A stretch of DNA of 64,000 bases from Minisyncoccia bacterium (GTDB taxonomy: Bacteria > Patescibacteriota > Minisyncoccia > Phycocordibacterales > UBA918), in contig JBGSJJ010000015.1 of assembly GCA_041742075.1 (NCBI GenBank), positions 65,132 to 129,131 of the forward strand, written 5' to 3'. Both the position numbers and the translations under genes were made by a program. The notes under the pieces were generated by a model, which saw nothing but the letters and a program-made list of their open reading frames with translations, was not told where the DNA came from and made no database searches. Shown in pieces: positions 1,313 to 60,277 of this stretch (position 1 is its first letter; every line of letters begins with the position of its first letter).

Positions 1313-4300
1313 CTAGCTGGTCGGTTCTACTGCTTCTGATTCTGGTGACGCTTCAGGCTCTGGTTCGACTGGTTCAGGCTTCTCTACTACTGGTTCCGGT
1401 TCTGGAGTGGGTGGGGGCGTTTCTTCTACGACTGGATCTTCTGGTATATCTTCCGTCCCGCTACCTCCGCTTCCTCTCGACCCTCCTTCCCCACCACCTT
1501 CGCTTACTTCTGGCTCTGGTGCTGGAGCTGGTGGTGGCGTGCTTGGGCCGGTACCCGAACCGTTGCCATTAAGGAGTCGGCGCAAATCGTCAGCGGTCAC
1601 ACACACGTCTTCGATACAGAGTTGTTCGGTTTCCACAATCTCCGTCTTGATACCCGTCACGGTAAGGACCCCATCAACAAAGTTTTGGGCGAGCGTCTTT
1701 AGGCGATCCCAGAGTGACTCACCTGCTCCACCAAAGACGATGTCGGTTGAGGTTGAAGTGAGTTCACGCATTATAGTCGCAGTCCGCGCGTCATCGAAGC
1801 GACCAAGCTTTACAAACATGAGCACAGTACCAACCTGTACTTGCTGTCCGTTAACCGTAACTGACTTGGCTCTCACATTTTGGAGCACTTCGATATCTTC
1901 TAGAGTTTCTTCAGCTTCTTCTTCAAGCTCTTCGGCGATTTCAGTGTCCGGCACAACTGGCTCAGTATTCTTCACGCAGTTCGTAGCGCCAGCAGAACCA
2001 ACTGCACCACCACCACCATAGCTACAGCCATCTTGAGCTTTCGGGTCAACTGGTGTCTCAGGAATATCTGGCAAACGAATATCGTCACCAAACTGATTCA
2101 CGAACCCTTCTGAGTAGGCATACTCACCCGTAAAGTCTTCAAGCGCTGAACCAACCACCACATCGCCTGGTTCAGCTTTTTTGCCCACGCCTGGAATACT
2201 GGAAAGCGCGATTTTGTCACCCACCTTGATAGCACCATTTTCGGTTGAAAGCTTAATTGGCACACGACCGGTAAGCGCAATCGGGTAGCCCGACTCGCGT
2301 GAGCGGAGTGAGGTGTCGTCAAACCCAAGGGTCATACCTGGCTTAGTTGAAACCACACCAATGATTTTTTCAGTTGTCTCTGTTGAAGCGCGACCGACAC
2401 TAATACCACCATCTGCATACACAATCTCGCCAGGTTCGAGGTTCTCACGACTGAAGTACATTTCAGCTAAGTCAGAGTTACCAACCGTAGCGGAAACCGA
2501 AGTGATTCGTCCCGTTGTCGACGCGTTACAACTTCCGTCATTATCGACACAGAGTCCTCCGCGACCAATCTGGAGACCTGCCATAGTGGTGCCGTTACCA
2601 ATGGTGGTTGTACCGTAACTGCTGACCGTGAAGACGCCTGAACCAACGTTCTGAAGATTAATGAAGTTACCTGCGTATGAGCCCGTATCGTTACCAAAGT
2701 TCATCAAGAGACCAGAGCCAGTGAAGGTTGAGTCTTCTTGGTAGAGTGCCATGAGGGCCGCACTCGTGATAGTGCGTGAGTAGCCTCGAATCGCGTTACC
2801 TTGAATGGTACCTTCGGTTTCTGCATACACACCAGCTGGCTCATAGAGGTCGCCAGCGTCTCCCCGAGTGGTAGCGCGGAGTCCAAAGGTCCGTCCGAAG
2901 CCGGAGAGCGCCGTGCTTTCTCCAAGGGTATTGGTACCTCTATCCACCTGCACTTCAAGACCACGAATGACGTTTCCTCTACTAGTACTGTCAGCCAAAC
3001 GCAGGAGATTACCCACAATAGTGGTCGTCGCACTACCGGTGTGCACGATTTCTGTCTGGTTACCAAACTGCACGCCACCACCACTGCTGTTTGCGAGACC
3101 GAGGTACTGCATAATGCCTGCTGTTGTGGTACCAGTGACGCCAGTCGCTTGAATTGAAAGCTTACTATTTGGCGTGGTAGTTCCGATACCCATGTTACCC
3201 GCTGCAGTCACGGTAAGAAGTCTGGCGTTTGTAGACGAAGCCAGCGCAAAGATGTCAGTTGTGCCAGCAGTACCAGTTACGGTAAGTTTCGCGGTTGGAG
3301 TTGTTGATCCAATACCAAGATTGCCGAGATAATCAAGTCGCATCCGTTCTGCTGGCACTGCATTATTTGCCGTAGAGAAAACTAATGCACCTTTGTATGC
3401 GCCATTTGTGATGTCAGTAATTATTCCAGATAAACCAGCCACGTTAGTCATGCCACCAGTCGTGCGGTTTGCACCGAAAAGAAGTTGAGTTCCGTTATTA
3501 TTTGTAGCTACTTCGTCATTTTGTAGTCGAGCCAAATCAAGTGTACCAACAGCACTGTTTATAATATCTAGCTTATACGCAGGGGCAGCTGTTGAATCTA
3601 GAAAACTACCAATTCCAAGATTTCCAGTATCACGCTCAACACGAAGTAATGGCAAAGAACTCGCCTGACTAAGTATTTCAAAGCCATTTCTAGTACCATC
3701 AAACCTACTGTTATAGCGAAGAATAATACCATCGCCTCCAGTCTCCTCTAAAACTACCTGTGCGCTTCCATTACTTGATGTATTTGAAAGTCTCAATTCA
3801 ACTGGATTAGACGTGCCATTTGCCGCAGAGAGATGTAATAACGCAGTTGAGTCCGGGTTAGCTGTACCAATACCAACTGCACCTGAACTTTTTACAGTAA
3901 GCAGTCGAGAGTTGGTTGACGAAGCTATTGCAAAGATATCGCCAGCCCCAGCAGCTCCAGTAATAGCTAATCGAGCCGTCGGCGTACTAGTACCAATACC
4001 TAGATTAGTCCCAGTGAATACAAAATCTGTACTGTCAGTAAGTGCTGTCGCACCACTGTTCGTATACATAATACGGTTAGCTGTGAAGGAAGAAGGTGTG
4101 TCGGTAAGCCCAAGGAACGTACCATTACCGAGACCAAGCGTACTCGTCGCCACCCAACGAGTACTGGTACCAGTAGTTTGAAGCACCATACCTAATGTAC
4201 CGGTGGCGTTGTTGTTGTCACGAAGTGCCCCTTGGAGGTAGGTGGTGCCAGAAAGCGTGAAGCCGAGGGTAGAAGAAGCGTTCACGAGGGTGGTGTTGGT

Positions 4301-7300
4301 GAGCATTGAGGAAGACGCGCGGACAAAGCCACCACTGGTTCCTTGTTCGTCACTAAGGAGGGCGGCTAGACCATTGGAATCGGTGAAGGCTGCTGAGGTG
4401 CCGAGGGTTGAGGTAGCCACCCACCTCGTACTCGTGCCGGTGGTCTGAAGCACCATACCTAATGTACCGGTGGCGTTCACTCCGTCACGGAAGCCGCCGG
4501 TGAGACGGAAGTCGCCGGCTACTGATAGTTTGCTGGCTGGGGAGCTGGTGCCGATGCCGATGTTGCCACTACTTAAGGTGGTGCCGGTACCGTCGACACC
4601 AGTACCAAAGATGAGGTTACCGATGTTGAGTACGTCGTCTTGAGTGGTGGAGAAGGCATCGATATCGTAACCAAGGAAGATACCTCGATCTACCCCTGTG
4701 GCGTTATCAGCAACACGATATCCAATCGCGATAGTACCAGTACCGTTGTTTACTGAAAGAGCATCCCTGCCAAGTGCAATATTTCTCAAACCAGTTGAGT
4801 TTGTAAACAAGGTGTAGCTACCGATACCGATGTTGTCTATACCAGTAGTGTTAGCAGCCAAAGATTGAATACCAAGCGCTGTATTATTTGAGCCGGTAGT
4901 GTTTTGTGTAAGTGTTAGTTCACCGAGCGCGATGTTATAAGAACCACTTGTGTTTTCATCAAGAGCAAATGGTCCTATGGCCACATTATTGAGGCCACTC
5001 ATGAGTGCGGTTGAAGAGCCAAATAACGCATTTTGTCCGATGGCAGTATTATTCGTACCGGTTCCTAAGAAACGAAGTGCCCCATCACCAATCGCGTAAT
5101 TGTAGGTACCGGTGGTAATAGAGGTAGATGACGCGCCGGCGAAGAAGAAGTTATTGCGTGTTGTCGAGCCGGTTAGCACTGGAGTAGTACCCATGAAGTA
5201 ACCAGCTGAGGCGGTGCTTGAGCCATTAATTGCAAGTGTGCCGAAAACAGTTGGCGCAGTAAGGATTGACGACGATGCGCGGACGAAGCCACCACTAGTT
5301 CCCTGTTCGTCACTAAGGAGGGCGGCGAGGCCGTTTGAATCACTGAAAGCGGCTGAAGCGCCGAGGGTTGAAGTAGCGACCCAGCGGGTTGAGGTGCCAG
5401 TCGTTTGGAGAATCATCCCCAGCGTACCCCTGCTACCAGAGTTATCACGAAGACCACCGGTTAGGGTGAGGTCGGTGAGGGTTGAAGTGCCGGTCACAGC
5501 AAGGGTGCCGGTTGCGGTTAAGTTGCCGCCGAAGTAGCCACTGCCAGCGACGGTGAGTTTGCTGCTTGGAGTGGTGGTACCAATACCAACCGCACCATCA
5601 TTAGCAATCACAAATGGGCTCGTGTCACCGAGTACATCATTTACCTGAAAGCTTATATCACTCGTTTCGTTAAGAACGAACAAAGCTGCGCCAGCAGTGA
5701 TTGAACTCGTACCCACAGCGACATCTCCATTAGCTTCAACCGCAAATGATGCTTGCCACGTCGCTCCAGAGTCGTTGCTTCTTCCGATACCAAATACAGA
5801 CTCACTACCTGAAGCATCACCAAACTGAAGAGCGTGACGATTTCCACCTTCTAACGTAGCCAGAGTGAAGCGTCGAGCAGAATTAGCATCGGTTTCCATA
5901 CCGAGCGCGTACGGGTCGTTATTTTCCGCTACGCTATTGTTAAATGTCATAAGCAAATTCTGATTTCCTACCGTCAGTAGGTACGGTGGTGTGCTGGTGC
6001 CAATCCCCACATTGCCATTACCATTAATTCGTATCCGTTCCGTGTTATTAGTGCCAAGAATAAGAGCGTTATTGTTTACGTTTCCGACTACCAGTGGAAA
6101 GTCTCGACCGGCATCTTGTGCAATAAGAGCGGCTGTGCCAGAGCTAAAACCAAAGAGTGTTCCGCCTGTCTGCCCAATATAAATATCGGCCGTGTTGCCA
6201 AAGTTTCGTATGTATTGAAAACCACTCGTGGTACCATCGCCCACCTGCAATTGGTAAGCAGGATTTGCAGTACCAATACCAACATTTCCTGTCGCACTAT
6301 CGACAAACAGCGTCGGTGTTGTCCCTGTCCCCACCCTGAAGTTCCCCCACACATCAAGCTTACTCGCTGGCGTCGTAGTACCAATACCTACATCACCACC
6401 ACTGGTGACAGTAAATAGACGTGCATTTGTGGACGAAGCTACCGCAAAGATGTCACTCGTGCCAGCAGTGCCTGTTATGGCGAGCTTGGCTGATGGGGTT
6501 GATGAGCCGATGCCGATGTTGCCAAATCGATTTATAGTCATTCGCTGTTCCTCAGCACCAGTCCAGAACTGAATCGATCCTTCTGGGTCACTTGGACCAC
6601 TTGGATTACCAGCCACAAAAAGAATATTTCCTCGCTGGTCCGATAATTCATTAAAATCATTACCCCGAGCGAGGAAATAGGCACCCTGGCTAGAATTATT
6701 TGAACCTCTACCAGCGGCAAAAAAGCCGATACTAGCATTGACTGTCCCAGAATTTTCTGATGAGAGGTAGAACAGATTGTCAGTCGCCTGAGAGCCTCCA
6801 TTTAATAAAATATTATTGGTAAATTCAGTTAAACCATTAAAAGTAGTTTTGCTCGTAGAAACATCTGTAAAGAGTGCTGGCACCGTACCAGTCCCCACGC
6901 GGAAGTTCCCCCACACATCGAGCTTTGCATTGCTGTGAGCAGTAGTTGAGCCGATAGCTAAGCTATCACTGAGTGACGTGAGGTATGAAGTAGCGCCACC
7001 ATCAGTGAAGAGTGACCCGCTTCCAAACCCAAGCGTTGAGGTAGCTACCCACCTCGTACTCGTGCCGGTAGTCTGGAGCACCATACCAAGGGTACCCGTC
7101 GCGTTGTTGTTGTCTCGGAGGGCCCCTTGGAGGTAGGTGGTGCCAGAGAGGGTGAAGCCAAGAGTAGAGGAGGCGTTGATGAGCGTAGTGTTGGTGAGCA
7201 TGGAAGAAGACGCGCGGACGAAGCCACCACTCGTGCCTTGTTCATCAGACAGAAGCGCAGCGAGTTCTGATGAGTTAATGAACTGAGCTGAAAGACCGAG

Positions 7301-9619
7301 GGATGAAGTCGCAATTTGATTCCAGGTATTGCCTGCTCCACCAATGAGGAGTTGGTTCACGCCAGTGGTTGAGGTACCGGTGCCTCCACGGGTTGGGGCT
7401 AAGATACCGATGGTATCTGAAAGCGCGATGCCGAGTGTACTGGTAGCAATCCACCGTGTAGAGGTACCGGTAGTTTGCAGCACCATACCTAAAGTACCAG
7501 TGGCGTTGTTGTTATCTCGGAGGGCACCGTTTAGGTACGTCACTCCAGCCAAGGTGAGGTTGGTTGATGAGGCGTTGAAGAGTGTTGGGGCGGTGAGGAA
7601 AGAGGAGGAAGCGCGGACGAAGCCACCTGAGGTGCCTTGTTCGTCGGTAAGAGCAAGAGCGAAGTTGTCTGATGATGGTGTTGCGAGGAAGGTCGCAACG
7701 TTGGTACCAAGACCTGAGACACCAGTACTAATCGGGAGACCAGTGGCGTTCGTGAGCACACCAGAGATTGGGGTGCCAAGAGCTGGAGCGATTAAGGTTG
7801 GACTGGTGAGGGTAGAGGAAGACGCACGAACGAAGCCACCTGAGGTACCGTTCTCATCAGAGAGGAGGGCGGCGAGTTGGTCGGAGTTGGTGAAGGCTAG
7901 TGAGGTTCCTAACGTTGAAGTAGCCACCCACTGAGTACTGGTGCCGGTGGTTTGGAGGATCATCCCGAGGGTACCACCTGAGTTAGAGGCGTCACGGAAG
8001 CGACCGGTAAGGGTGAGGTCAGAGAGAGTACTCGTGCCAGTAATTGATAGGGTGCCGGTTGCAATCACGTTACCAGCGACAGTAAGCAGAGCTGACGGTG
8101 AAGTGGTACCGATACCGACGTTGCCATTTGTCATCACGGTCATGCGCGACACACCGTTCGTGAACAGACGTAAGTCGTGGTTACTAATCGTGCCAATGAA
8201 ACCTTGCGAGGTGTCTGAACGTAATTCGGTAACTACATTGTTGGTAGTATTGATAGTCCTCAGTCCAGCTTCAGCAGAAGTTCCTTCTAGATGCAGAAGG
8301 CGTGCTGGTGAAGTCGTACCGATACCGAGTCTCGTCCCGGTAAATACAAACGTGTCACTATCAGTGAGTCCAGTTGCACCACTGTTTGTAAACGGAATCC
8401 GGTTGGCGTTGTACGCACTTGGTGTATCACTCAATCCCAAAAAGGTGTTGTTGCCAAAGCCAAGGGTAGAGGTACTCGTCCAGGTAGGCTGACCGCCCGA
8501 GACAGCAAGCACCTGACCAGCTGTACCAATACTAAGCGCAGCCGGTGTGTCAATTGCCGACGCGTAAAAGAGTGAACCACTCGGCATCGACGGCATGTCC
8601 GCTAAGTCAAACAAAGACGATCCCGAGAGGTCAGACAAGTAGGCATTGTCGAGAGCACAAATAGTACCGTTACAAGAAAAATCACCGAAGTCTAAGTTTG
8701 CCAGGTTGGTTGGTCCAATTGCATTTGCCGTTATTTCTTGTCCGGTGAGTGACAGGTAATCTTCTCCGGCTAAAGTGACAGCATCATGCCCAGCTGAAAA
8801 CCCAAGTGAGCTGGTCGCTACCCACTGGGTGCTTGTACCAGTTGTGAGAAGCACCATCCCAAGCGTACCGCGACTGCTGGCGTTGTCTCTAAGGCCACCC
8901 GTAAGCGTGAGGTCGGAGAGCGTGGTAGTACCCGTGACAGCCAAGGTACCCGTTGCGGATACGCTACCCCCGAAGTAGCTGTTTCCACTGACGGTGAGTC
9001 TCGCTGACGGAGTACTTGAGCCGATACCGACGTTGCCCGAGTTAGTTATCGTAAACAAATTGGTCACTCCTGAAAATAGTTCAAGTAAGTTACCGGCTCC
9101 ATTTTGAATCAAGGTGAGAAGTGCATTTGAACTTGTGGTAGCGAGTGTACCAGCCTGGTCACTGCGTAAGAAACTGGTCGTAGCTAAGCCTCCAAACTGC
9201 TCAGCGTTTTGCGCCTCAAACGCGGCTGGTACCGTTCCGAGAATCTTTCGTGGCGACATTTCGGCATCGGCCTCGATACTCACACCAAGGTAAAGAGTTT
9301 GCGTAAAGTCGACTCCTGCGCTCGCAAAAGAGGTGGTACTGCCGAGCATAACTGAGAAGAGTCCATTTGTAACCGTCACTTCGTTTGTACCATCGAGCGT
9401 CTCTGTCCAAATAGGTGAACCAGTTGAGGCAACGGTGTAGAGTGAGAATTCCATCTCATAGGTGCCGTTTGGAACCGCCACACCAGCGTTTGTGGTGAGC
9501 TTTCCTTGGTAGTTGATAGTCGGACTTTGCGCCAGTACTTGGGTCGATACAAACAGACCACAGGCAAAAACAATCAGGGTAGCGATCGTAAGTTGCAGTT
9601 GTAGCCGGAAGTGAATCAT
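1313..9619 (-). CDS. Giant (2768 aa) secreted/surface repeat protein with a signal peptide, an N-VGIGTTxP-x-KL-type beta-helical (tail-fibre-like) motif array, seven near-identical ~33-aa repeats, and a Pro/Glu-rich C-terminal tail.
   Basis: Single uninterrupted 8.3-kb ORF. N-terminus MIHFRLQLQLTIATLIVFACGLFVSTQVLAQ is signal-peptide like. The motif GxLRDNxxxxGTLGMVLQTTGTSTRWVATSTLG occurs 7 times and AALLSDEQGTSGGFVRASSS about 6 times. GNVGIGTTSPSxKLxV motifs recur. C-terminus is ...STPPPAPAPEPEVSEGGGEGG...EPEPVVEKPEPVEPEPE. Composition is dominated by T, S, G, A, N. Confidence 0.8.
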   Translation of the reverse strand: MIHFRLQLQLTIATLIVFACGLFVSTQVLAQSPTINYQGKLTTNAGVAVPNGTYEMEFSLYTVASTGSPIWTETLDGTNEVTVTNGLFSVMLGSTTSFASAGVDFTQTLYLGVSIEADAEMSPRKILGTVPAAFEAQNAEQFGGLATTSFLRSDQAGTLATTSSNALLTLIQNGAGNLLELFSGVTNLFTITNSGNVGIGSSTPSARLTVSGNSYFGGSVSATGTLAVTGTTTLSDLTLTGGLRDNASSRGTLGMVLLTTGTSTQWVATSSLGFSAGHDAVTLAGEDYLSLTGQEITANAIGPTNLANLDFGDFSCNGTICALDNAYLSDLSGSSLFDLADMPSMPSGSLFYASAIDTPAALSIGTAGQVLAVSGGQPTWTSTSTLGFGNNTFLGLSDTPSAYNANRIPFTNSGATGLTDSDTFVFTGTRLGIGTTSPARLLHLEGTSAEAGLRTINTTNNVVTELRSDTSQGFIGTISNHDLRLFTNGVSRMTVMTNGNVGIGTTSPSALLTVAGNVIATGTLSITGTSTLSDLTLTGRFRDASNSGGTLGMILQTTGTSTQWVATSTLGTSLAFTNSDQLAALLSDENGTSGGFVRASSSTLTSPTLIAPALGTPISGVLTNATGLPISTGVSGLGTNVATFLATPSSDNFALALTDEQGTSGGFVRASSSFLTAPTLFNASSTNLTLAGVTYLNGALRDNNNATGTLGMVLQTTGTSTRWIATSTLGIALSDTIGILAPTRGGTGTSTTGVNQLLIGGAGNTWNQIATSSLGLSAQFINSSELAALLSDEQGTSGGFVRASSSMLTNTTLINASSTLGFTLSGTTYLQGALRDNNNATGTLGMVLQTTGTSTRWVATSTLGFGSGSLFTDGGATSYLTSLSDSLAIGSTTAHSNAKLDVWGNFRVGTGTVPALFTDVSTSKTTFNGLTEFTNNILLNGGSQATDNLFYLSSENSGTVNASIGFFAAGRGSNNSSQGAYFLARGNDFNELSDQRGNILFVAGNPSGPSDPEGSIQFWTGAEEQRMTINRFGNIGIGSSTPSAKLAITGTAGTSDIFAVASSTNARLFTVTSGGDVGIGTTTPASKLDVWGNFRVGTGTTPTLFVDSATGNVGIGTANPAYQLQVGDGTTSGFQYIRNFGNTADIYIGQTGGTLFGFSSGTAALIAQDAGRDFPLVVGNVNNNALILGTNNTERIRINGNGNVGIGTSTPPYLLTVGNQNLLMTFNNSVAENNDPYALGMETDANSARRFTLATLEGGNRHALQFGDASGSESVFGIGRSNDSGATWQASFAVEANGDVAVGTSSITAGAALFVLNETSDISFQVNDVLGDTSPFVIANDGAVGIGTTTPSSKLTVAGSGYFGGNLTATGTLAVTGTSTLTDLTLTGGLRDNSGSRGTLGMILQTTGTSTRWVATSTLGASAAFSDSNGLAALLSDEQGTSGGFVRASSSILTAPTVFGTLAINGSSTASAGYFMGTTPVLTGSTTRNNFFFAGASSTSITTGTYNYAIGDGALRFLGTGTNNTAIGQNALFGSSTALMSGLNNVAIGPFALDENTSGSYNIALGELTLTQNTTGSNNTALGIQSLAANTTGIDNIGIGSYTLFTNSTGLRNIALGRDALSVNNGTGTIAIGYRVADNATGVDRGIFLGYDIDAFSTTQDDVLNIGNLIFGTGVDGTGTTLSSGNIGIGTSSPASKLSVAGDFRLTGGFRDGVNATGTLGMVLQTTGTSTRWVATSTLGTSAAFTDSNGLAALLSDEQGTSGGFVRASSSMLTNTTLVNASSTLGFTLSGTTYLQGALRDNNNATGTLGMVLQTTGTSTRWVATSTLGLGNGTFLGLTDTPSSFTANRIMYTNSGATALTDSTDFVFTGTNLGIGTSTPTARLAITGAAGAGDIFAIASSTNSRLLTVKSSGAVGIGTANPDSTALLHLSAANGTSNPVELRLSNTSSNGSAQVVLEETGGDGIILRYNSRFDGTRNGFEILSQASSLPLLRVERDTGNLGIGSFLDSTAAPAYKLDIINSAVGTLDLARLQNDEVATNNNGTQLLFGANRTTGGMTNVAGLSGIITDITNGAYKGALVFSTANNAVPAERMRLDYLGNLGIGSTTPTAKLTVTGTAGTTDIFALASSTNARLLTVTAAGNMGIGTTTPNSKLSIQATGVTGTTTAGIMQYLGLANSSGGGVQFGNQTEIVHTGSATTTIVGNLLRLADSTSRGNVIRGLEVQVDRGTNTLGESTALSGFGRTFGLRATTRGDAGDLYEPAGVYAETEGTIQGNAIRGYSRTITSAALMALYQEDSTFTGSGLLMNFGNDTGSYAGNFINLQNVGSGVFTVSSYGTTTIGNGTTMAGLQIGRGGLCVDNDGSCNASTTGRITSVSATVGNSDLAEMYFSRENLEPGEIVYADGGISVGRASTETTEKIIGVVSTKPGMTLGFDDTSLRSRESGYPIALTGRVPIKLSTENGAIKVGDKIALSSIPGVGKKAEPGDVVVGSALEDFTGEYAYSEGFVNQFGDDIRLPDIPETPVDPKAQDGCSYGGGGAVGSAGATNCVKNTEPVVPDTEIAEELEEEAEETLEDIEVLQNVRAKSVTVNGQQVQVGTVLMFVKLGRFDDARTATIMRELTSTSTDIVFGGAGESLWDRLKTLAQNFVDGVLTVTGIKTEIVETEQLCIEDVCVTADDLRRLLNGNGSGTGPSTPPPAPAPEPEVSEGGGEGGSRGSGGSGTEDIPEDPVVEETPPPTPEPEPVVEKPEPVEPEPEASPESEAVEPTS
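4150..8900 (-). repeat. Intragenic long direct DNA repeats within the giant gene (units of ~100-300 bp, several segments of 30 nt or more identical).
   Basis: For example, gaagcaccatacctaatgtaccggtggcgtt is identical at 4185-4215 and 4449-4479. Related copies lie near 5395, 7060, 7450, 7925 and 8810. gacgcgcggacgaagccaccac-type copies lie near 4310, 5270, 7200, 7610 and 7810. The repeats also produce the repeated antisense ORF translations in the track (ARTKPP(L/E)VPCSS...). Confidence 0.8.
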
Positions 9620-15038: not shown

Positions 15039-15071
15039 AAAACAGCCCCCAAAAGATTCGGGGGCTGTTTT
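15039..15071 (-). terminator. Rho-independent terminator downstream of secA (perfect 12-bp stem, 9-nt loop, A/T tracts on both sides; potentially bidirectional)
   Basis: aaaacagccccc aaaagattc gggggctgtttt. On the minus strand the stem is followed by TTTTGTGCC. Confidence 0.55.
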
Positions 15072-21341: not shown

Positions 21342-21482
21342 AATGCTGAAAACTATACCATACCGAACGGACGCTCGGCGACGTTGACGAGAGGAGTGAA
21401 GAGCGTTGCAATATATAGCGTCTTGAGTCGGCATATGTAGAGTACAAAAACAGGCCCCAAGGTGGGGCCTGTCAAAATGTAC

Positions 21483-23571: not shown

Positions 23572-24675
<1,104 letters not shown>

Positions 24676-24762
24676 CAACTACCTAGGTAATACTGCAGTA
24701 ATGACAAAGACAGCCCGGCAACGAAGTTGCCGGGCTGTCTTTGTCACAAGCTTAGTTTAAGA

Positions 24763-25020
24763 CTACTCATACAGTTCGCTATGAGACCCTATCTCAAGAA
24801 AAATGACGGACTGATTATCATAGATAAAAATCGCACGATAGTCAGCACTAACGTTTAAACTGAGGCAGGGGTACCTAACTCCTTGAAGCGTATGAATATG
24901 GAGTAAAGGATGGTTTGGATACTCAAGAAAAATTGCCAACCGGTCTGTAAATTGCTTTTGCACTTTTTTTGGTAGCTTCTTATACTGCTTTTTAAAGTGC
25001 CGATGAAACGAAACTTCCAT
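24763..25020 (-). CDS. Type II toxin, RelE/ParE (YoeB-like) family
   Basis: 85 aa. FKKQYKKLPKKVQKQFTDRL...LHIHTLQGVRYPCLSLNVSADYRAIF matches the RelE/ParE fold pattern. Stop lies 4 nt after the upstream antitoxin gene. Confidence 0.7.
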   Translation of the reverse strand: MEVSFHRHFKKQYKKLPKKVQKQFTDRLAIFLEYPNHPLLHIHTLQGVRYPCLSLNVSADYRAIFIYDNQSVIFLEIGSHSELYE

Positions 25021-25023
25021 GAA

Positions 25024-25296
25024 TTATTTTGCGAGCCAAGCCTCAGCTTGAGCTTTTGAAGAAAAACCTTTTGAGACATGCTTTCCTGCTCGCGCTTCGG
25101 CGATATGCTTTTCGAGCTTTGCCAACACAGCCGGTTTGAGTTGTGGCTCACGCGCCAAGGTAAAGGCACCTGAACGCACAAACTCATGTAAGTAGGCATT
25201 GACCACAGTTGAGAGTGGTACTCCTAAGTATTCAGCGAGCGCTTGCGCTTGCTCCTTAACTAGCTTATCGGTCTTTATGTTTAAGACAGTTTTCAT
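25024..25296 (-). CDS. Type II antitoxin, RelB/DinJ family
   Basis: 90 aa. MKTVLNIKTDKLVKEQAQALAEYLGVPLSTVVNAYLHEFV is a RHH/DinJ-like N-terminus. Immediately upstream of the RelE-like gene. Confidence 0.62.
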   Translation of the reverse strand: MKTVLNIKTDKLVKEQAQALAEYLGVPLSTVVNAYLHEFVRSGAFTLAREPQLKPAVLAKLEKHIAEARAGKHVSKGFSSKAQAEAWLAK

Positions 25297-25357
25297 AATC
25301 TAACCATTGTATACACAACGGTTATTTTGTCAATCATGTAATGTATATAAAATTCAA

Positions 25358-25380
25358 CCCCATCCGCGTAGCGGATGGGG
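25358..25380 (-). terminator. Terminator hairpin downstream of the HD-like gene. Member of a repeated hairpin family (see 26221..26247).
   Basis: ccccatccgc gta gcggatgggg. Minus-strand reading is followed by TTGAATTTTAT. Confidence 0.5.
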
Positions 25381-25430
25381 TCTTGGTTTGAGTGGAAGCG
25401 TTTTGTTTCCTTGGCTTCGGCTAGAAAAAT

Positions 25431-26195
25431 TTAATTGTACATCTCATAATACTCGCCGAGAGCTTGCTTGATATCGTCCTCAGACTCGTTTAGAACATTG
25501 TGTCGACGAGCAATCTCGGCTCCAAAAGCTCGCACGAAGGATAGATATGCTCGCATGTCCTTCTCATCGATAAGGCCACGAGCAGTATCCGAAGGCAACA
25601 TACCTACCCACTCAATCATTCGAAACAGGTTCTGGTAGACGGTCTTCATCTGCCCTTCAACCGTCGTACCGTAGCCAAACGGATTAGCCGGGTCGTACAG
25701 AGGCATCGAGGCACTATGTGCTACACCAGAGACGATTCCGAGCGGACCGAGGCGGTCAAGCTTGTCGGCAATACGCAGTGCGGTAAGCAGAGGTGTATCG
25801 TTCGGCTCATCGTCTTTCTTGCTGTGCTGAAGAACCGCATCAATGATTCTCGCCCGCGCCATATAGTCAAACCGGCTTTCTTTAAGCAGATACTCGAGCA
25901 AATGGTTAAGGGGTATGAGTTTTTCAACCCCTCTCACCATACTCAAACGGTCGAGATTGTGGAGCCAGACCGCCGCCTGGTATTCACCCTGATCAAACGA
26001 AAGCTGAGTCGCTCGCCTGATACGCTCTCCAAGCGCGACCATACGATGCACATGCTCCACATCGTGCCCACCAGGAGCGTTCGGCATCGTATAGAGTGGC
26101 CCGAGTTTAGCTTCAAGCTCTTTAAGAAAACCACGCACTTTTTTCTCCTCATAGAGCACGACCACCGCGCTTTTCCAAGTACTCTTATACAACAT
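25431..26195 (-). CDS. Hypothetical protein, possibly an HD-superfamily-like hydrolase (weak)
   Basis: 254 aa. H..H (HDVEHVHRM), LHNLD and ADKLDRLG spacing loosely resembles HD motifs. Not conclusive. Confidence 0.4.
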   Translation of the reverse strand: MLYKSTWKSAVVVLYEEKKVRGFLKELEAKLGPLYTMPNAPGGHDVEHVHRMVALGERIRRATQLSFDQGEYQAAVWLHNLDRLSMVRGVEKLIPLNHLLEYLLKESRFDYMARARIIDAVLQHSKKDDEPNDTPLLTALRIADKLDRLGPLGIVSGVAHSASMPLYDPANPFGYGTTVEGQMKTVYQNLFRMIEWVGMLPSDTARGLIDEKDMRAYLSFVRAFGAEIARRHNVLNESEDDIKQALGEYYEMYN

Positions 26196-26220
26196 TATAC
26201 ATAAAAATCAACCCCACCCG

Positions 26221-26247
26221 CGAAACTTGCGGATGGGGTCTTGATGT
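26221..26247 (-). terminator. Terminator hairpin downstream of the Dabb-like gene. Near-identical to the 25358..25380 hairpin.
   Basis: ccccacccgc gaaactt gcggatgggg. Minus-strand reading is followed by TTGATTTTTAT. Shares the flanking caacccca...ggggtcttg with the other copy. Confidence 0.5.
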
Positions 26248-26272
26248 GTTCGCTTGAAGCGGACGGGGCGCG

Positions 26273-26752
26273 TCAGCGGATTTTAATTCTTAGACTTTGA
26301 CTTGGTGAATAGACCCCTTTATCGCCTTCCTCAAGCGAAAGTTCGGTGTTTCGGGTGTAGGCCTCCAGATAAGAGCCTTCACCGAGCGGGTTAATGGCTA
26401 CATCGGAGACCACCCAATGTTCGGCCAACCCGGCAATTTTCTGGCCGAAGGCGACGTGGTCGGGATGGGCGTGGAAGTTGATGAAGGCTTCTGGGCCTGC
26501 AAACAGCCCCACCTCGACCCAGCCATACCCCTTACGCTGGTCGATGTTCGGCCGGACAGAGAAAGACTTGATGCCCGCCTTAGCTCCTCCGCACAGCTTG
26601 TGGAGCGCGGCGCACTCTGCCATCACTGCTATCTGCTCCTCCTCGGTGACATCCGCTTTGAACTTGAACGTCACAATGTGAAGCAGGTCGGCATCACTCG
26701 GGACACCATCTCGGATAAAAGTGTAAAGTGGGTTTTCAGTTACTTGCGTCAC
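26273..26752 (-). CDS. Stress-responsive alpha/beta-barrel (Dabb)-like protein (weak)
   Basis: LHIVTFKFKADVTEEEQIAVMAECAALHKL is reminiscent of the Dabb domain. 159 aa. Confidence 0.4.
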   Translation of the reverse strand: MTQVTENPLYTFIRDGVPSDADLLHIVTFKFKADVTEEEQIAVMAECAALHKLCGGAKAGIKSFSVRPNIDQRKGYGWVEVGLFAGPEAFINFHAHPDHVAFGQKIAGLAEHWVVSDVAINPLGEGSYLEAYTRNTELSLEEGDKGVYSPSQSLRIKIR

Positions 26753-26862
26753 GGCGTTTCTCCTTTGGCTGACGTACCGGTACTTTCCACATTACAGCAC
26801 AACCTAAGCCAAAAAGCCATACCTGTCACCAAATGCCGACAGATAGTGTTATAATCGTCATC

Positions 26863-27792
26863 ATGGAAAAAACCGCTAAAATCTATGTCGCTGGCCATAG
26901 AGGTCTCGTTGGCTCAGCGCTTATTCGCTCACTTCAAAAGAACGGCTACACCAACCTCATTACCAAAACTCGAGCTGAACTCGATTTGCTCGACGCACAA
27001 GCGGTGGCCAACTTCTTCGCTACCGAAAAACCGGAGTATGTTTTTCTGGCCGCCGCTAAGGTTGGTGGCATAATGGCCAACAAAACCTACCCCGCTGACT
27101 TTATCTTTGAAAACCTCAGTATTCAAAACAACGTCATCCATAGTGCGTATGTATCGGGTGTTAAAAAGTTACTCTTTCTCGGCAGTTCTTGTATCTATCC
27201 AAAACTAGCCCCGCAACCGATTAAAGAAGAGTACTTACTTACTGGTCCACTAGAACCAAGCAACGACGCGTATGCCATAGCAAAAATTGCGGGCATTATG
27301 ATGTGTCAAAGCTACAAGCGCCAATACGGTAGCAACTTCATCAGCGTGATGCCCACCAACCTCTACGGAGAAAATGATAACTTTGACTTAGAAACGAGTC
27401 ACGTCCTCCCCGCTCTCATTCGTCGCTTCCATGAAGCCAAGGAAAATAGTGTGCCGAGTGTTACCCTCTGGGGTTCGGGCACCCCGATGCGTGAGTTTAT
27501 CCATGTAGACGATATGGCTCTAGCTTGCCTCCATCTAATGGAAACCTATAACGAAAGTGAGATTGTGAATATCGGCACAGGCGAAGACGTCACTATCAAG
27601 GAACTAGCCGAGACCGTGGCAAAGGTAGTCGGTTACCAAGGAGAGCTCTTGTGGGATACGAGCAAGCCTGACGGCACTCCTCGCAAGCTTCTTGATGTAT
27701 CCAAACTACACGGACTTGGCTTCAAGCATACGATTCAGCTTGAAGACGGCATCCGTGATACATATGAATACTACAAAAAAGTTACTGTTTGA
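26863..27792 (+). CDS. fcl: GDP-L-fucose synthase (GDP-4-keto-6-deoxymannose 3,5-epimerase/4-reductase). ATG at 26863; the track's 26833 start is an upstream in-frame extension.
   Basis: [33 protein letters not shown]...[19 protein letters not shown]...YAIAKIAG is canonical Fcl/WcaG. Confidence 0.92.
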
Positions 27793-48962: not shown

Positions 48963-50018
48963 GTGAAAAAAATCCGCGTAAAATTTTTAAAGTTTGGCAG
49001 TGCTGACCATACGACACCAGGATCATATGCTAATCTTTTTTATTCTCTCCTTCAAAAAAAGTACGAAGTCGAGATATCAGAAACGCCTGATTATATTTTC
49101 TACCATGAATCATCTGATGAACACTTGAACTATAATTGCGTAAAAATTTTCTATACCGGTGAAAATGTCTCACCAAATTTTAACTTTTGTGATTACGCCA
49201 TTGGTTTTGATTGGCTTGATTTTAGTGACCGTTACTATCGTTTTCCAATCTATCTAAATGCTATCTACTATCGACCAGAAGAAATAACTCAATCCGCAAA
49301 TATAGACTGGACAAAACCTGCCAACCTTACTCGTGCTGATATGGAAGCAAAAACGGAATTTTGTAGCTTTGTCTACTCTAACTATCGTGGCGAACTGGCC
49401 CGTCAGTCTTTATTTGATGCACTTAGTGTTTACAAAAAAGTGAACGCCGGCGGTGCGTATCTCAATAACGTTGGTGGGCGCGTAGAGAACAAACTGGCTT
49501 TTGAAGCTAAACATAAGTTTTCGATTGCTTGTGAAAATTCATCACGCTCAGGCTATACAACTGAAAAAATCATTGGTTCTTTTTTAGCTAAAACTATCCC
49601 TATCTATTGGGGCGACCCAGACGTCGCCAAGCAGTTTAACCCAAAGCGGTTTATTAATTGTCATGACTTTAAAAGTTTTGACGAGGTACGTACCCGAGTA
49701 GCCGAAATAGATGAAGATGATGACCTCTACCTGAGTATGGTAAATGAACCAATAACGATCCCTGAGTACAACTTTACAAAAGTTCATGAGGGCCTTGAAG
49801 CTTTTCTTCAACATATTTTTGACCAGCCTGTTACAGACGCTAAGCGAGCGACCATTAACCCAAATCGACTCGCAGAAATGGAAAAACGAGAACATGTGGC
49901 CAGTTGGTATACCGGCGCTCAATTAAAACTCATCCAAGTCAGTGCTAAAATCTACCAACCTCTTAAAAAGTTTCCTTGGTTTGAGAAACTAAAACATACA
50001 CTTTTTCAAAGTAAGTAG
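48963..50018 (+). CDS. Alpha-1,3(/4)-fucosyltransferase, glycosyltransferase family 10. GTG start.
   Basis: KFSIACENSSRSGYTTEKIIGSFLAKTIPIYWG matches the GT10 signature motif (FxxxFENSxxxxYxTEK). The GDP-fucose genes are in the same locus. Confidence 0.7.
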   Translation: MKKIRVKFLKFGSADHTTPGSYANLFYSLLQKKYEVEISETPDYIFYHESSDEHLNYNCVKIFYTGENVSPNFNFCDYAIGFDWLDFSDRYYRFPIYLNAIYYRPEEITQSANIDWTKPANLTRADMEAKTEFCSFVYSNYRGELARQSLFDALSVYKKVNAGGAYLNNVGGRVENKLAFEAKHKFSIACENSSRSGYTTEKIIGSFLAKTIPIYWGDPDVAKQFNPKRFINCHDFKSFDEVRTRVAEIDEDDDLYLSMVNEPITIPEYNFTKVHEGLEAFLQHIFDQPVTDAKRATINPNRLAEMEKREHVASWYTGAQLKLIQVSAKIYQPLKKFPWFEKLKHTLFQSK

Positions 50019-51958: not shown

Positions 51959-52694
51959 AAAAATTCGGCGAGTGCTCTTAACGGCGCTTTATAGTCCGTT
52001 TATTCTAAAGGATTACTTGGCTTTTATACGCCAGGATAACAATCCTCGGTTTACCTACTCCTGGCGGACCTTCTACCCGCAGATTTTTGATAAAACCAAA
52101 CTAACTGGTTTTGATCGACACTATGTCTATCACACCGCTTGGGCAGCCCGCGTGGTAAAAGAAATCAACCCACCGCTTCATACTGACATCGCTTCAAGCT
52201 TATACTTTCCCGCCCTCGTCTCCGCGTTTGTACCCGTCGCTTTTTATGACTATCGCCCGGCCGAACTTGGGTTATCTAACCTCACGAGTAACCATGCTGA
52301 CCTCACGAAGCTCCAGTTTGAGACGGGGAGCGTTACTTCCCTGTCTTGCCTTCACACGATTGAACACGTCGGACTCGGTCGCTATGGCGACCCGGTTGAT
52401 CCAAGTGGCGACGTCAAAGCTTGTAGTGAACTCGCGCGTGTCCTCGCTCCCGGTGGGTCACTCTTGTTTGTGACACCGGTTGGGAAAACGGCCCAGATTA
52501 TGTTTAATGCTCATCGTATTTATACGTATGAACTCGTGCTTTCGCTCTTCCCTGACTTGATCCTTCATGAGTTCTCACTCATTCCCGAGCAGGCCGAGCA
52601 TGGTGGCTTGATTCGAAATGCCGACCCAATACTGATAGAAAATGAAGTGTATGGGTGCGGATGTTTTTGGTTTAAGAAACCAGCCTCAGTATGA
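51942..52694 (+). CDS. Putative SAM-dependent methyltransferase (DUF268-like)
   Basis: LSCLHTIEHVGLGRYGDPVDPSGD...LAPGGSLLFVTP. Confidence 0.4.
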   Translation: MFSLLKKIRRVLLTALYSPFILKDYLAFIRQDNNPRFTYSWRTFYPQIFDKTKLTGFDRHYVYHTAWAARVVKEINPPLHTDIASSLYFPALVSAFVPVAFYDYRPAELGLSNLTSNHADLTKLQFETGSVTSLSCLHTIEHVGLGRYGDPVDPSGDVKACSELARVLAPGGSLLFVTPVGKTAQIMFNAHRIYTYELVLSLFPDLILHEFSLIPEQAEHGGLIRNADPILIENEVYGCGCFWFKKPASV

Positions 52695-53560
52695 TTATCG
52701 TAAACCTCAAAGGAGGCTTAGGAAACCAGATGTTTCAATACGCGCTTGGTCGCACGTTGGCACTTAAACATAACGACACACTTAAGCTCGATATCAGTAC
52801 ACTCTCCCGCGCTCATGAACTTGGGGTGGTGTATCGTCCCTTTAGCCTACAGTCTTTCAATGTCATACAGAACATCGCTACCAGAGATGAAATCAATCAC
52901 CTTGCCTATCCGTACGGCCTACTTTCAAAACTTACTCGGACAATTTCTGCTCGCGTTTTAAAACGTACCCACGTTTGTTTTGAACCCACCATTCTCAACC
53001 TGACTGGGGACCAGTACCTTGATGGGTATTGGCAAAGCCCACGTTTTTTTGAAGACATCCGCGGCACTCTGATAACTGAGTTTACGCTACGGACGCCCCT
53101 GCCTGAGACAGGTGAATTCTACAAGCAAGCTTTGACACAAGATGGGTCAGTCAGTCTGCACGTACGCCGTGGTGACTACGCCACTAACCCCAAAACAACT
53201 GGGGAGATGGGGGTATGCTCACTTGAGTATTACAAAATAGCTATTGAGCACATACGTACAGTGGTCGATACGCCCCGCTTTTTTGTTTTTTCAGACGATA
53301 TCGCCTGGGCCAGAGAACATCTCCTCCTTGAAGAGTCCGAGGTTATCTTTGTATCTGATGCGTCGCTCACTGACGCTATGGAACTAGCACTGATGAGCTT
53401 GGCCAAGCACAATATAATAGCCAATAGTAGCTTTAGCTGGTGGTCAGCCTGGCTTAACCAAAACCCAAGCAAAGTTGTGATAGCGCCTACTCCTTGGTTT
53501 AATACAGTACGGTTCGATACTCACCTACTACCAGAATCATGGATACAACTACCCAAGTAA
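52691..53560 (+). CDS. Alpha-1,2-fucosyltransferase, glycosyltransferase family 11
   Basis: MIIVNLKGGLGNQMFQYALGRTLA is the hallmark GT11 N-terminus (GGLGNQ[ML]FQYA). ...HVRRGDY is motif I. Confidence 0.8.
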   Translation: MIIVNLKGGLGNQMFQYALGRTLALKHNDTLKLDISTLSRAHELGVVYRPFSLQSFNVIQNIATRDEINHLAYPYGLLSKLTRTISARVLKRTHVCFEPTILNLTGDQYLDGYWQSPRFFEDIRGTLITEFTLRTPLPETGEFYKQALTQDGSVSLHVRRGDYATNPKTTGEMGVCSLEYYKIAIEHIRTVVDTPRFFVFSDDIAWAREHLLLEESEVIFVSDASLTDAMELALMSLAKHNIIANSSFSWWSAWLNQNPSKVVIAPTPWFNTVRFDTHLLPESWIQLPK

Positions 53561-58828: not shown

Positions 58829-60277
58829 TCAAGCGTGATTTTTTACCTCTGTTGGTGATTTGGTGAGGAAAATAGCTCCTAAAACCAGCAAAACAAACAG
58901 TCCAAATACGATGAGTGGCGTTGTCTCGCGAGGGGCGGGTTCCTTAGTTACTGGCCTAGCAGAGCTCTCTTGAGGCGACTCAGCCTCGACTGTTGCTTCA
59001 ATTAGACTAGGCTGACTATCCGCACCATACACCGCGTCAGCATCTTTATGGGGTACGTACACTGGTTCAGTAGACGCTTCAGCTCTCGGCGTAAACGTAA
59101 AAAAGTCAGTTGCTTCTGCTTCTTGTTCTATACTAAGCAGTACTTCTTCGGGAACCACCTCAGTAGATACTTTGGCAGTATTATTTGTAGTAGCCACCAA
59201 CTGTCCTTCAGAGTCGTACAAAGCGACACTATCACCATAGGATGCCTGCAAACGATTTTTTGAGACCGTGATAGTACCCCTCGGCAGAAGCATGGTTCTG
59301 GGCGGGAAAATTACTGACTCAACTCCACGTAATCTAAAGCCTGAGAGTGGTACTTCGTACGGAGAATTATTATGCACCTGTACATCGCCAGCTGTATTTT
59401 GAGTCAAAGAAACCGTGACTGGTAGTACGGTAATTGTGACTCGCGCTATCTGTTCATGGCGCGCGTACGAAGCATAGACATTGACCGCGTATTCACCCGG
59501 ATAAAGAAACTGGTGCGTAACTTCTTTACCACTCTCACTATACCCATCACCAAAGTTCCAATTATATAAAAGCGAATGCAATATCGTATCGTTTGGCCCG
59601 GCCGGGGTTACTACAAACGGTATCTCTTGTCCCACATATGCAATCTCTGGGGCATCTATCACAAGTGCAAGTTCAGTATTTGCTCGTTCTAGTTTGAGCG
59701 TCTTCTTAGGTGGACGTAAAAGTACCCCTCCGCCAGATCGCACCAGAGGAGCTGTGGTGACTTCTTCTTCATCACTAGGTGTTGTCTCACTACCAACAGT
59801 TTTATTAGCACTGCCGGGTGTCGCTTCTGCCGTAATCCACTTCGTGCCACTATACTGAGCAGTTTCTTTGGTCGTATTATTGCCACCTATATTTTCCCAA
59901 TCGGTGCCACCAACCACTTGGTCAACAATGGTTTCATCGCCTGTACGCAAAGTAATCGTTGCGCCCGTATTTACAAGCGCACCCGTATAGGTGACAAACG
60001 GCGGGTTAGCAAGGTATACCCCGTCGCCGCGATTTCGCTCAAGTAGTACGTAGTCACCGGCCGGTATTTCACCAGCCAGCGCTATCGTAACACTCTCACC
60101 AACGGTAAGTTTCCAGCCAGCTAAAGAAACAGCGCTCGCATCGCTATTGTAAAGCTCAATCCACTCGTGATTCACGGACTCCACACTCCCCATCCACGCT
60201 ACCTCACTGACACTTACACCAGCATACGTAAGCGAGGGTAGTCCGAGAAACAGAGTGAGGAGGAGTAAGGCACGCAT
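58829..60277 (-). CDS. Surface protein: signal peptide, lamin-tail domain (LTD), PKD domain, C-terminal TM anchor
   Basis: MRALLLLTLFLGLPSLTYA is the signal peptide. VSEVAWMGSVESVNHEWIELYN...GWKL is LTD. NWNFGDGYSESGKEVTHQFLYPGEYAVNV is PKD. C-terminal PLIVFGLFVLLVLGAIFL. Confidence 0.7.
   Translation of the reverse strand: MRALLLLTLFLGLPSLTYAGVSVSEVAWMGSVESVNHEWIELYNSDASAVSLAGWKLTVGESVTIALAGEIPAGDYVLLERNRGDGVYLANPPFVTYTGALVNTGATITLRTGDETIVDQVVGGTDWENIGGNNTTKETAQYSGTKWITAEATPGSANKTVGSETTPSDEEEVTTAPLVRSGGGVLLRPPKKTLKLERANTELALVIDAPEIAYVGQEIPFVVTPAGPNDTILHSLLYNWNFGDGYSESGKEVTHQFLYPGEYAVNVYASYARHEQIARVTITVLPVTVSLTQNTAGDVQVHNNSPYEVPLSGFRLRGVESVIFPPRTMLLPRGTITVSKNRLQASYGDSVALYDSEGQLVATTNNTAKVSTEVVPEEVLLSIEQEAEATDFFTFTPRAEASTEPVYVPHKDADAVYGADSQPSLIEATVEAESPQESSARPVTKEPAPRETTPLIVFGLFVLLVLGAIFLTKSPTEVKNHA

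Follow-up and report, generated by a model that had tools for sequence, protein, structure and literature searches.

A probably composite gene block separates gmd from fcl in a variable surface-glycan locus of a Patescibacteria genome

Introduction

In the colanic-acid cluster of Escherichia coli, the GDP-fucose synthesis genes are arranged as gmd-fcl-gmm, and gmm (nudD/wcaH), which encodes a Nudix GDP-mannose hydrolase, is co-transcribed downstream of fcl. Here, we analyzed a 64,000-nucleotide stretch of DNA from a Minisyncoccia bacterium (GenBank assembly GCA_041742075.1, contig JBGSJJ010000015.1, forward-strand positions 65,132 to 129,131; hereafter, the window), in which the genes for GDP-mannose 4,6-dehydratase (gmd) and GDP-L-fucose synthase (fcl), both on the plus strand, are separated by a 2.1-kb block of four minus-strand genes. 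These genes encode an 85-aa toxin, a 90-aa antitoxin, an HD-like protein and a Dabb-domain protein. As in E. coli, a nucleotide-(sugar) hydrolase-type gene thus stands beside gmd and fcl. However, unlike Gmm, the candidate hydrolase of the window has a predicted HD fold and is encoded on the opposite strand, between the two sugar genes.

The components of the block resemble other described systems as well. The HD-like protein is similar in fold to E. coli YedJ and Bacillus subtilis YpgQ, the latter of which is a Mn-dependent (d)NTP pyrophosphohydrolase (PMC8177086). The toxin-antitoxin (TA) genes form an antitoxin-first bicistron, as do the type II systems E. coli DinJ-YafQ and Helicobacter pylori HP0895-HP0894, whose toxins are mRNA interferases of the RelE/ParE superfamily. 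Moreover, the HD-like and Dabb genes are each followed by a copy of the same hairpin, an arrangement reminiscent of integron cassettes and attC arrays, in which co-oriented but unrelated single genes are each followed by a similar hairpin repeat with an imperfect loop. An earlier note on this DNA had interpreted all four genes as one addiction cassette that landed in the gmd-fcl operon. After comparing the locus with those of related genomes, we consider it likely that the block instead has a composite origin, with two or more histories, in a variable surface-glycan locus of a Parcubacteria/Paceibacteria-type Patescibacteria genome.

Results

Both sugar genes exceeded equivalog-level NCBIfam cutoffs. 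The product of gmd (23584-24675) matched Pfam GDP_Man_Dehyd over its full length (2.3e-151) and TIGR01472 with 580 bits against a cutoff of 415, and that of fcl (26863-27792; the longest open reading frame (ORF) starts at 26833) matched NF047922 with 506 bits against a cutoff of 500. The ORF map agreed with the earlier note in placing four minus-strand genes between them, namely those of the toxin (24763-25020), the antitoxin (25024-25296), the HD-like protein (25431-26195, 254 aa) and the Dabb-domain protein (26273-26752, 159 aa). The premise that gmd and fcl are normally adjacent was also borne out: among 80 gmd loci from diverse genomes, 58 had a same-strand fcl no more than 250 nt from gmd and 65 had one no more than 1.3 kb away, and none of the four intervening genes was present in any of the 80. 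Therefore, a 2.1-kb opposite-strand interruption is unusual in general.

Among related genomes, a split slot with opposite-strand occupants was found in three, including the source of the window. The first relative (L085/L086) carries fcl (74% amino acid identity, minus strand), the HD gene (54%, plus), gmd (60%, minus) and a Wzy-type gene (43%, plus), which is the order and orientation of the window without the Dabb gene or the TA pair. The second (L122), which is the closest relative, carries fcl (76%, minus), the Dabb gene (55-60%, plus), two unrelated 256-aa genes (plus) and gmd (79%, minus), without the HD gene or the TA pair. The window shares its HD gene with the former and its Dabb gene with the latter. 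Additionally, Kaiserbacteria (L083, L084 and L110) carry the Dabb and HD genes as same-strand neighbors within a glycan cluster. Other Patescibacteria keep gmd-fcl intact (L004 and L107, the latter with the HD gene followed by gmd-fcl), and the split is therefore a feature of a subclade and not a universal one. The possibility that the earlier note had set against its own insertion, that of an ancestral arrangement conserved throughout the lineage, thus held in part: gmd and fcl are split in L085 and L122 but remain together in L004 and L107. We conclude that the split was most probably inherited in the subclade.

The HD-like protein had no match in Pfam or NCBIfam. It has 70 homologs, and every taxon-bearing source name among them belongs to Patescibacteria (Kaiser-, Jorgensen- and Harrisonbacteria and Paceibacterota). 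An AlphaFold2 (AF2) model of the protein, with a predicted local distance difference test score (pLDDT) of 94, was matched by Foldseek to 2pjq, YpgQ and YedJ (probability 1.0, template modeling (TM) scores up to 0.66-0.78), and a profile of the family retrieved YedJ (3e-8) and YpgQ (2e-6) from the PDB sequences. The family shares the all-helical HD fold with these two proteins, as well as conserved motifs that can be aligned, HDxxH near the N-terminus and ADK/RLD near the C-terminus. Unlike YpgQ and YedJ, however, it has no Pfam HD match, and the doublet that aligns with their FHD/LHD reads H79-N80 (WLH79-N80-x-D82-R), with D82 two residues on. The asparagine occurs in at least 90% of 45 sequences, whereas H48, H79 and D144 are invariant in the family alignment, so that the canonical H...HD...D metal-ligand motif is not present as such. 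This H-N doublet suggests an altered metal chemistry or a non-catalytic role. The true start of the gene is probably the GTG at 26138: homolog N-termini and the sequence itself, with GAGGAG at 26150-26145, point to this codon, which gives a protein of 235 aa. With this start, the spacer between the Dabb and HD genes is 134 nt, equal to that between the HD gene and relB, the antitoxin gene.

The neighborhood of the HD gene was recurrent. A metagenome scan with the HD alignment and tblastn yielded at least 12 fetched loci in which gmd or fcl-like short-chain dehydrogenase/reductase (SDR) genes stand no more than a few kb from the HD gene. The 69 genes located at most two positions from the HD gene in 24 loci included, by Pfam, 14 Epimerase and 13 GDP_Man_Dehyd members (overlapping SDR families that often match the same protein) and 4 NUDIX members, together with several glycosyltransferases and Wzy_C. 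The family thus differs from YpgQ and YedJ in that its named members are all from Patescibacteria and its habitual neighbors are gmd, fcl, SDR, glycosyltransferase and Wzy genes.

The Dabb-domain protein matched Pfam PF07876 over residues 24-118 (49.3 bits against a cutoff of 25, E 8.3e-13), and its gene begins with a GTG preceded by an AAGGAG Shine-Dalgarno site. A word-indexed protein search returned the query itself only, and an exhaustive search was used instead; it yielded few homologs (67 cluster representatives at E <= 1e-3). Their matches to the query end at residues 58-128, mostly at 117-123, and the C-terminal 35-40 residues or so (window positions 26273-26390) are unmatched in the homologs. 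Genomic contexts were looked up for the three closest homologs, two of which lie on contigs of approximately 1 kb; the context therefore comes from L122 alone, where the closest homolog (P0089, 60% identity) occupies the same slot beside fcl.

The TA pair proved to be of an already known type II kind and looks like an ordinary, self-contained mobile add-on. The 85-aa toxin scored 31.1 bits with Pfam ParE_toxin, above the cutoff of 23, and fell below the cutoffs of YafQ_toxin (26.7 versus 30), TIGR02385 RelE_StbE (26.9 versus 27.9) and TIGR00053 YafQ (20.7 versus 87). In a sequence search of the PDB, its nearest solved relatives were the HP0894-type toxins of H. pylori, with which it has a C-terminal GSHSELY/F motif in common. 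The earlier note had called this ORF RelE-like, and the family fold was indeed found. An AF2 model built from 14 homologs (pLDDT 93, predicted TM score 0.82) gave 47 Foldseek matches in the PDB at E <= 1e-3, all of which were TA toxins of the RelE/ParE superfamily; it adopts the RelE/YafQ microbial RNase fold and superposes on YafQ (TM up to 0.86) and also on YoeB, RelE, HigB and HP0894. Nevertheless, the toxin is only 17-22% identical to solved toxins of the YafQ/HP0894 type. Its close relatives are few, consisting of 14 homologs with 51-59% identity from uncultured samples; the sole taxon-bearing one is from a Paceibacteria-type metagenome-assembled genome. A search of plasmid proteins returned a single weak match (34% identity).

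The antitoxin matched TIGR02384 RelB_DinJ with an E-value of 2.5e-7 but with 30.8 bits, below the cutoff of 45.65, and had a weak, below-cutoff match to Pfam DUF6364; a search against PDB sequences returned none. Both proteins of the pair thus lie below the cutoffs of the curated YafQ Pfam, RelE_StbE and RelB_DinJ families. Like DinJ, the antitoxin has an N-terminus that looks like a ribbon-helix-helix (RHH) DNA-binding motif. The antitoxin-first order described in the earlier note stands, whereas the gap does not: 3 nt, not 4, separate the antitoxin stop from the toxin ATG. Toxin homologs were found in three unrelated settings, each time behind an antitoxin of the same family: between gapdh and rpiB (L116/L117), adjoining merT on a 1.03-Mb contig (L118) and next to rpsG (L120). 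At L116, L118 and L120, an antitoxin of 88-90 aa (38-59% identity) precedes a toxin homolog of 85-86 aa.

The TA unit begins directly after the T-run of the HD-gene terminator. Its promoter and operator-like site lie at 25301-25333 on the minus strand. The putative promoter, TTGACA-16-TACAAT (25333..25306), matches the consensus at 11 of 12 positions. An operator-like site, TAACCGTTGTGTATACAATGGTTA, spans 24 nt within 25301-25325 and overlaps the -10 box, as autoregulation would predict; it is self-complementary at 20 of 24 positions and occurs once in the window (0 expected by chance). The promoter/operator DNA of the window recurs in conserved form at L116 and L120/L121, two of the three homologous TA loci, and a 34-nt stretch that holds TAACCGTTGTGTATACAATGGTTA is identical to L120 at 32 positions, compared with only 55-59% identity of the proteins. 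Such a conserved promoter and palindrome over diverged proteins is, at the level of sequence, what would be expected of a self-contained type II module that regulates itself. The remoter homolog at L118 (3622-3731; antitoxin 38% identical) differs in its upstream DNA, where TATATACCAAGAG is repeated in tandem. The operator seems to change together with the antitoxin from one TA subfamily to another.

Several signals bear on the transcription of the locus. The gap between gmd and the toxin gene contains an inverted repeat (24702-24746) with a perfect 21-bp stem and a 3-nt loop, whose folding energies are -41 kcal/mol on the plus strand and -44 kcal/mol on the minus strand (z about -11). It is likely the 3' end of, or a barrier to, both convergent transcripts. 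Upstream of fcl, TGTTATAAT (26847-26855, plus strand) is a perfect extended -10 element located 7 nt before the ATG at 26863, and this ATG has no Shine-Dalgarno site. With the 26863 start, the alignment to the NCBIfam profile begins at residue 4, and tblastn alignments begin at residues 10-16 of the long ORF; we therefore place the probable start of fcl at 26863 and regard the 26833 start as probably wrong. These features suggest that fcl is expressed from an extended -10 promoter of its own and that its mRNA is leaderless. On the minus strand, the Dabb gene, the HD gene and the TA pair are predicted to form three units, separated by predicted terminators at 26240-26210 and 25382-25356. Overall, gmd and fcl are very probably transcribed as separate units. 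The claim that the insertion uncoupled fcl from the gmd promoter is thus supported as regards the uncoupling, which is nevertheless best read as predating the TA pair.

These two terminators are copies of one another. Each is a minus-strand hairpin with a 12-pair stem containing 8 GC pairs and followed by a T-run, which lies 32 nt after the Dabb stop and 48 nt after the HD stop. As GC-rich stem-loops with T-runs at gene 3' ends, they are predicted intrinsic terminators; they fold at -22.7 and -24 kcal/mol, and no shuffled sequence folded equally well. The repeat unit comprises approximately 47-51 nt (25344-25390, with its stem at 25356-25382, 3' of the HD-like gene; 26198-26248, with its stem at 26210-26240, 3' of the Dabb gene). 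The copies are 88-90% identical, their loops differ, and the similarity fades outside, so that the two stand as direct repeats flanking the HD gene. A TATAAT follows directly past the T-run of the Dabb-gene hairpin. The near-identity reported in the earlier note is thus real, although the motif lies at 25355-25385 and 26209-26243, the starts given before being off by 2 and 9 nt. The proposal that a gene-plus-terminator module was duplicated fared worse. The Dabb and HD proteins are unrelated, intergenic alignment found similarity at the hairpin only, over some 50 nt, and the hairpin-bearing genes of L122 are also unrelated to each other; we rejected a tandem duplication of gene and terminator.

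Further copies of the hairpin were found neither in the window nor in the fetched loci or viral contigs. A fixed-loop pattern search for the motif gave no match because the hairpin loops differ in length. The L122 slot shows the same pattern with another hairpin. Its two unrelated 256-aa genes (5424-7135), whose products matched neither Pfam nor the HD-family profile, are each followed by a 30-nt terminator (6217-6246 and 7106-7135), and these terminators are 100% identical to each other and different in sequence from the hairpin of the window. Diverse gmd loci totaling 1.24 Mb contained no such hairpin pair when scanned, and 314 kb of loci from Patescibacteria contained a single one, that of L122. 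The same scan of the window returned the HD/Dabb pair and one looser pair (15041-15069 and 21449-21473; AAAACAGSCCCC...GGGGSCTGT), whose members lie 6.4 kb apart after unrelated genes. This looser pair hints that terminators of the source genome share sequence beyond expectation. An integron/attC origin of the hairpins was also considered and rejected. Whereas attC sites measure 57-141 nt and carry R''/L''/L'/R' boxes, the hairpins of the window are 27-31 nt long, end in a U-tract and are of the intrinsic-terminator type. In addition, there are two copies only, each gene apparently has its own promoter, and no integrase domain was seen in the ORFs scanned. The repeated terminators may have arisen by local duplication, by gene conversion or by an exchange of cassette type at hairpins.

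The glycan locus around the block exceeds 35 kb (approximately 19-57 kb of the window) and encodes Wzy, Wzx and many glycosyltransferases and methyltransferases. Two fucosyltransferases, of families GT10 (48963-50018) and GT11 (52691-53560), would be the consumers of GDP-fucose. Directly 3' of fcl lies a low-GC island of glycan-synthesis genes (27789-50018; 30-40% GC compared with approximately 47-50% in core genes), which seems to be a variable portion of the surface-glycan locus that is exchanged horizontally; GT10 is at its far edge and GT11 just past that edge. A search of Rfam over 23.0-28.5 kb at E <= 1 found no known RNA, and none of the four block proteins matched the PADLOC defense-system models. 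Elsewhere in the window, a giant ORF of 2768 aa (1313-9619, minus strand) and the adjoining ORFs of 260 and 329 aa had no Pfam match, at E <= 1e-3 for the giant ORF. A 680-aa protein (60290-62332, minus strand) that is similar to TrwB/VirD4-type coupling proteins and to the HerA/DUF87 ATPase adjoins a surface protein with lamin-tail and PKD domains (58829-60277).

Discussion

Overall, we provide a putative course of events for the assembly of this locus. The HD and Dabb genes would be old companions of the GDP-fucose genes in the Patescibacteria lineage, and gmd and fcl would already have been separated by opposite-strand genes in the subclade that includes the source genome. Because of this prior separation, each of the two would have its own transcription unit: the gmd transcript would stop at the 21-bp palindrome, and fcl would probably be driven by its own extended -10 element and yield a leaderless mRNA. 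The Dabb and HD terminators would be copies of one unit of approximately 50 nt, left as direct repeats around the HD gene. In a later step, a self-contained type II TA module would have been added downstream of the HD terminator, bringing a sigma-70-type promoter, a palindromic operator, the RHH-like antitoxin and the toxin with its YafQ/RelE fold. By analogy with YafQ and RelE, this toxin would cleave ribosome-bound mRNA, and the antitoxin would be expected to neutralize the toxin, bind the operator and repress the promoter. Judging from its fold and neighborhood, the HD-fold protein most likely acts in GDP-sugar metabolism, either as a metal-dependent phosphohydrolase of nucleotides or nucleotide sugars or by binding nucleotides, and its role may be analogous to that of Gmm beside gmd-fcl in E. 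coli.

Several observations weigh against this course of events. The three genomes with a split slot all differ in its contents (the HD gene only; the Dabb gene with two unrelated genes; and the Dabb gene, the HD gene and the TA pair), and a shared ancestry of the split is accordingly parsimonious but not proven. The gmd of L085, in which the slot is split, is 60% identical to that of the window, less than the 70% of L004, in which gmd-fcl is intact; gene replacement or independent rearrangement may account for this difference. The reading of inheritance comes from comparing individual loci between genomes. In addition, the H-N in place of the HD doublet leaves the catalysis of the HD-fold protein uncertain, the antitoxin scores under the NCBIfam RelB_DinJ cutoff, and the promoter, leaderless-start and terminator calls are consensus matches only. 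Finally, the palindrome between gmd and the toxin gene has no T-run on either strand and was not called in the terminator scan.

Differing slot contents would be expected if the gap between gmd and fcl were a hot spot that swaps single genes, in which recombination between the hairpin of an incoming gene and one already in place would leave direct repeats behind. The HD and Dabb genes of the window may then be independent arrivals and not inherited. The position of the HD gene between direct hairpin repeats of 47-51 nt is consistent with this idea, as are the identical hairpins that flank a 256-aa gene in the same slot of L122 and the rarity of such pairs in the loci scanned. However, there are just two examples, no recombinase was seen, and the hairpins are short, perfect, U-tailed terminators that do not resemble attC. 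Moreover, the repeats of the window are no more than 88-90% identical, and local duplication or gene conversion could produce them. That the HD and Dabb genes accompany genes of the gmd/fcl type in many genomes argues for a functional, ancestral linkage. We therefore regard a hot spot as rather unlikely, although it is the alternative that we take most seriously. A further step along this line draws on the HD gene of the window and the unrelated 256-aa gene of L122 as examples: the gap would be an integrase-free gene-swap slot in which terminator hairpins serve as joints for gene-plus-terminator cassettes, and the HD-fold protein, designated 'HN' after its doublet, would represent a new hydrolase directed at GDP-sugars or a new regulator of fucosylation at the cell surface. 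We offer this as speculation with a small chance of being correct.

The earlier view, in which all four minus-strand genes are one addiction cassette recently inserted in an intact gmd-fcl operon, is very improbable. The prevailing adjacency of gmd and fcl in the 80 loci, the single strand shared by the four genes and the presence of a TA pair would all suit it. Nevertheless, the parts of the supposed cassette occur separately. The HD gene stands alone in the L085 slot, the Dabb gene occurs without the HD gene or the TA pair in that of L122, Kaiserbacteria carry a Dabb-HD pair, and the TA homologs are solitary at unrelated sites with their own conserved promoter and operator. The GC contents of the three parts also differ sharply, at 39-47% for the TA pair (relE 39%), 51% for the HD gene and 55% for the Dabb gene (62% at third codon positions); the HD gene, together with gmd (51%) and fcl (47%), is core-like (secA 49%, murB 45%). 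In addition, the block has three separate putative terminators, showed no match to plasmid or phage DNA, and lies in a window whose scanned ORFs contain no integrase or transposase domain. A chimeric join in the assembly, which the metagenomic source and the mosaic GC content might suggest, is the least credible explanation, since proteins identical to the window products, block included, are documented on three contigs, an NCBI record and Logan assemblies, and the slot architecture recurs in relatives.

Most of this locus is ordinary, and it offers two modestly interesting leads, neither of which is established: the HD-fold 'HN' family and the repeated terminators that flank single genes. Instead of a selfish TA cassette that disrupts a sugar operon, the favored reading describes an inherited, lineage-specific rewiring of the GDP-fucose genes of these ultra-small bacteria with an ordinary TA module alongside. 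The occurrence of unrelated neighboring genes with copies of one terminator, in one slot of two related genomes, hints at how variable glycan loci are remodeled. Likewise, the uncharacterized 'HN' family of Patescibacteria, through its linkage to gmd, fcl and Wzy genes, is a candidate for a missing player in building or tuning the surface fucosylation of these episymbionts.

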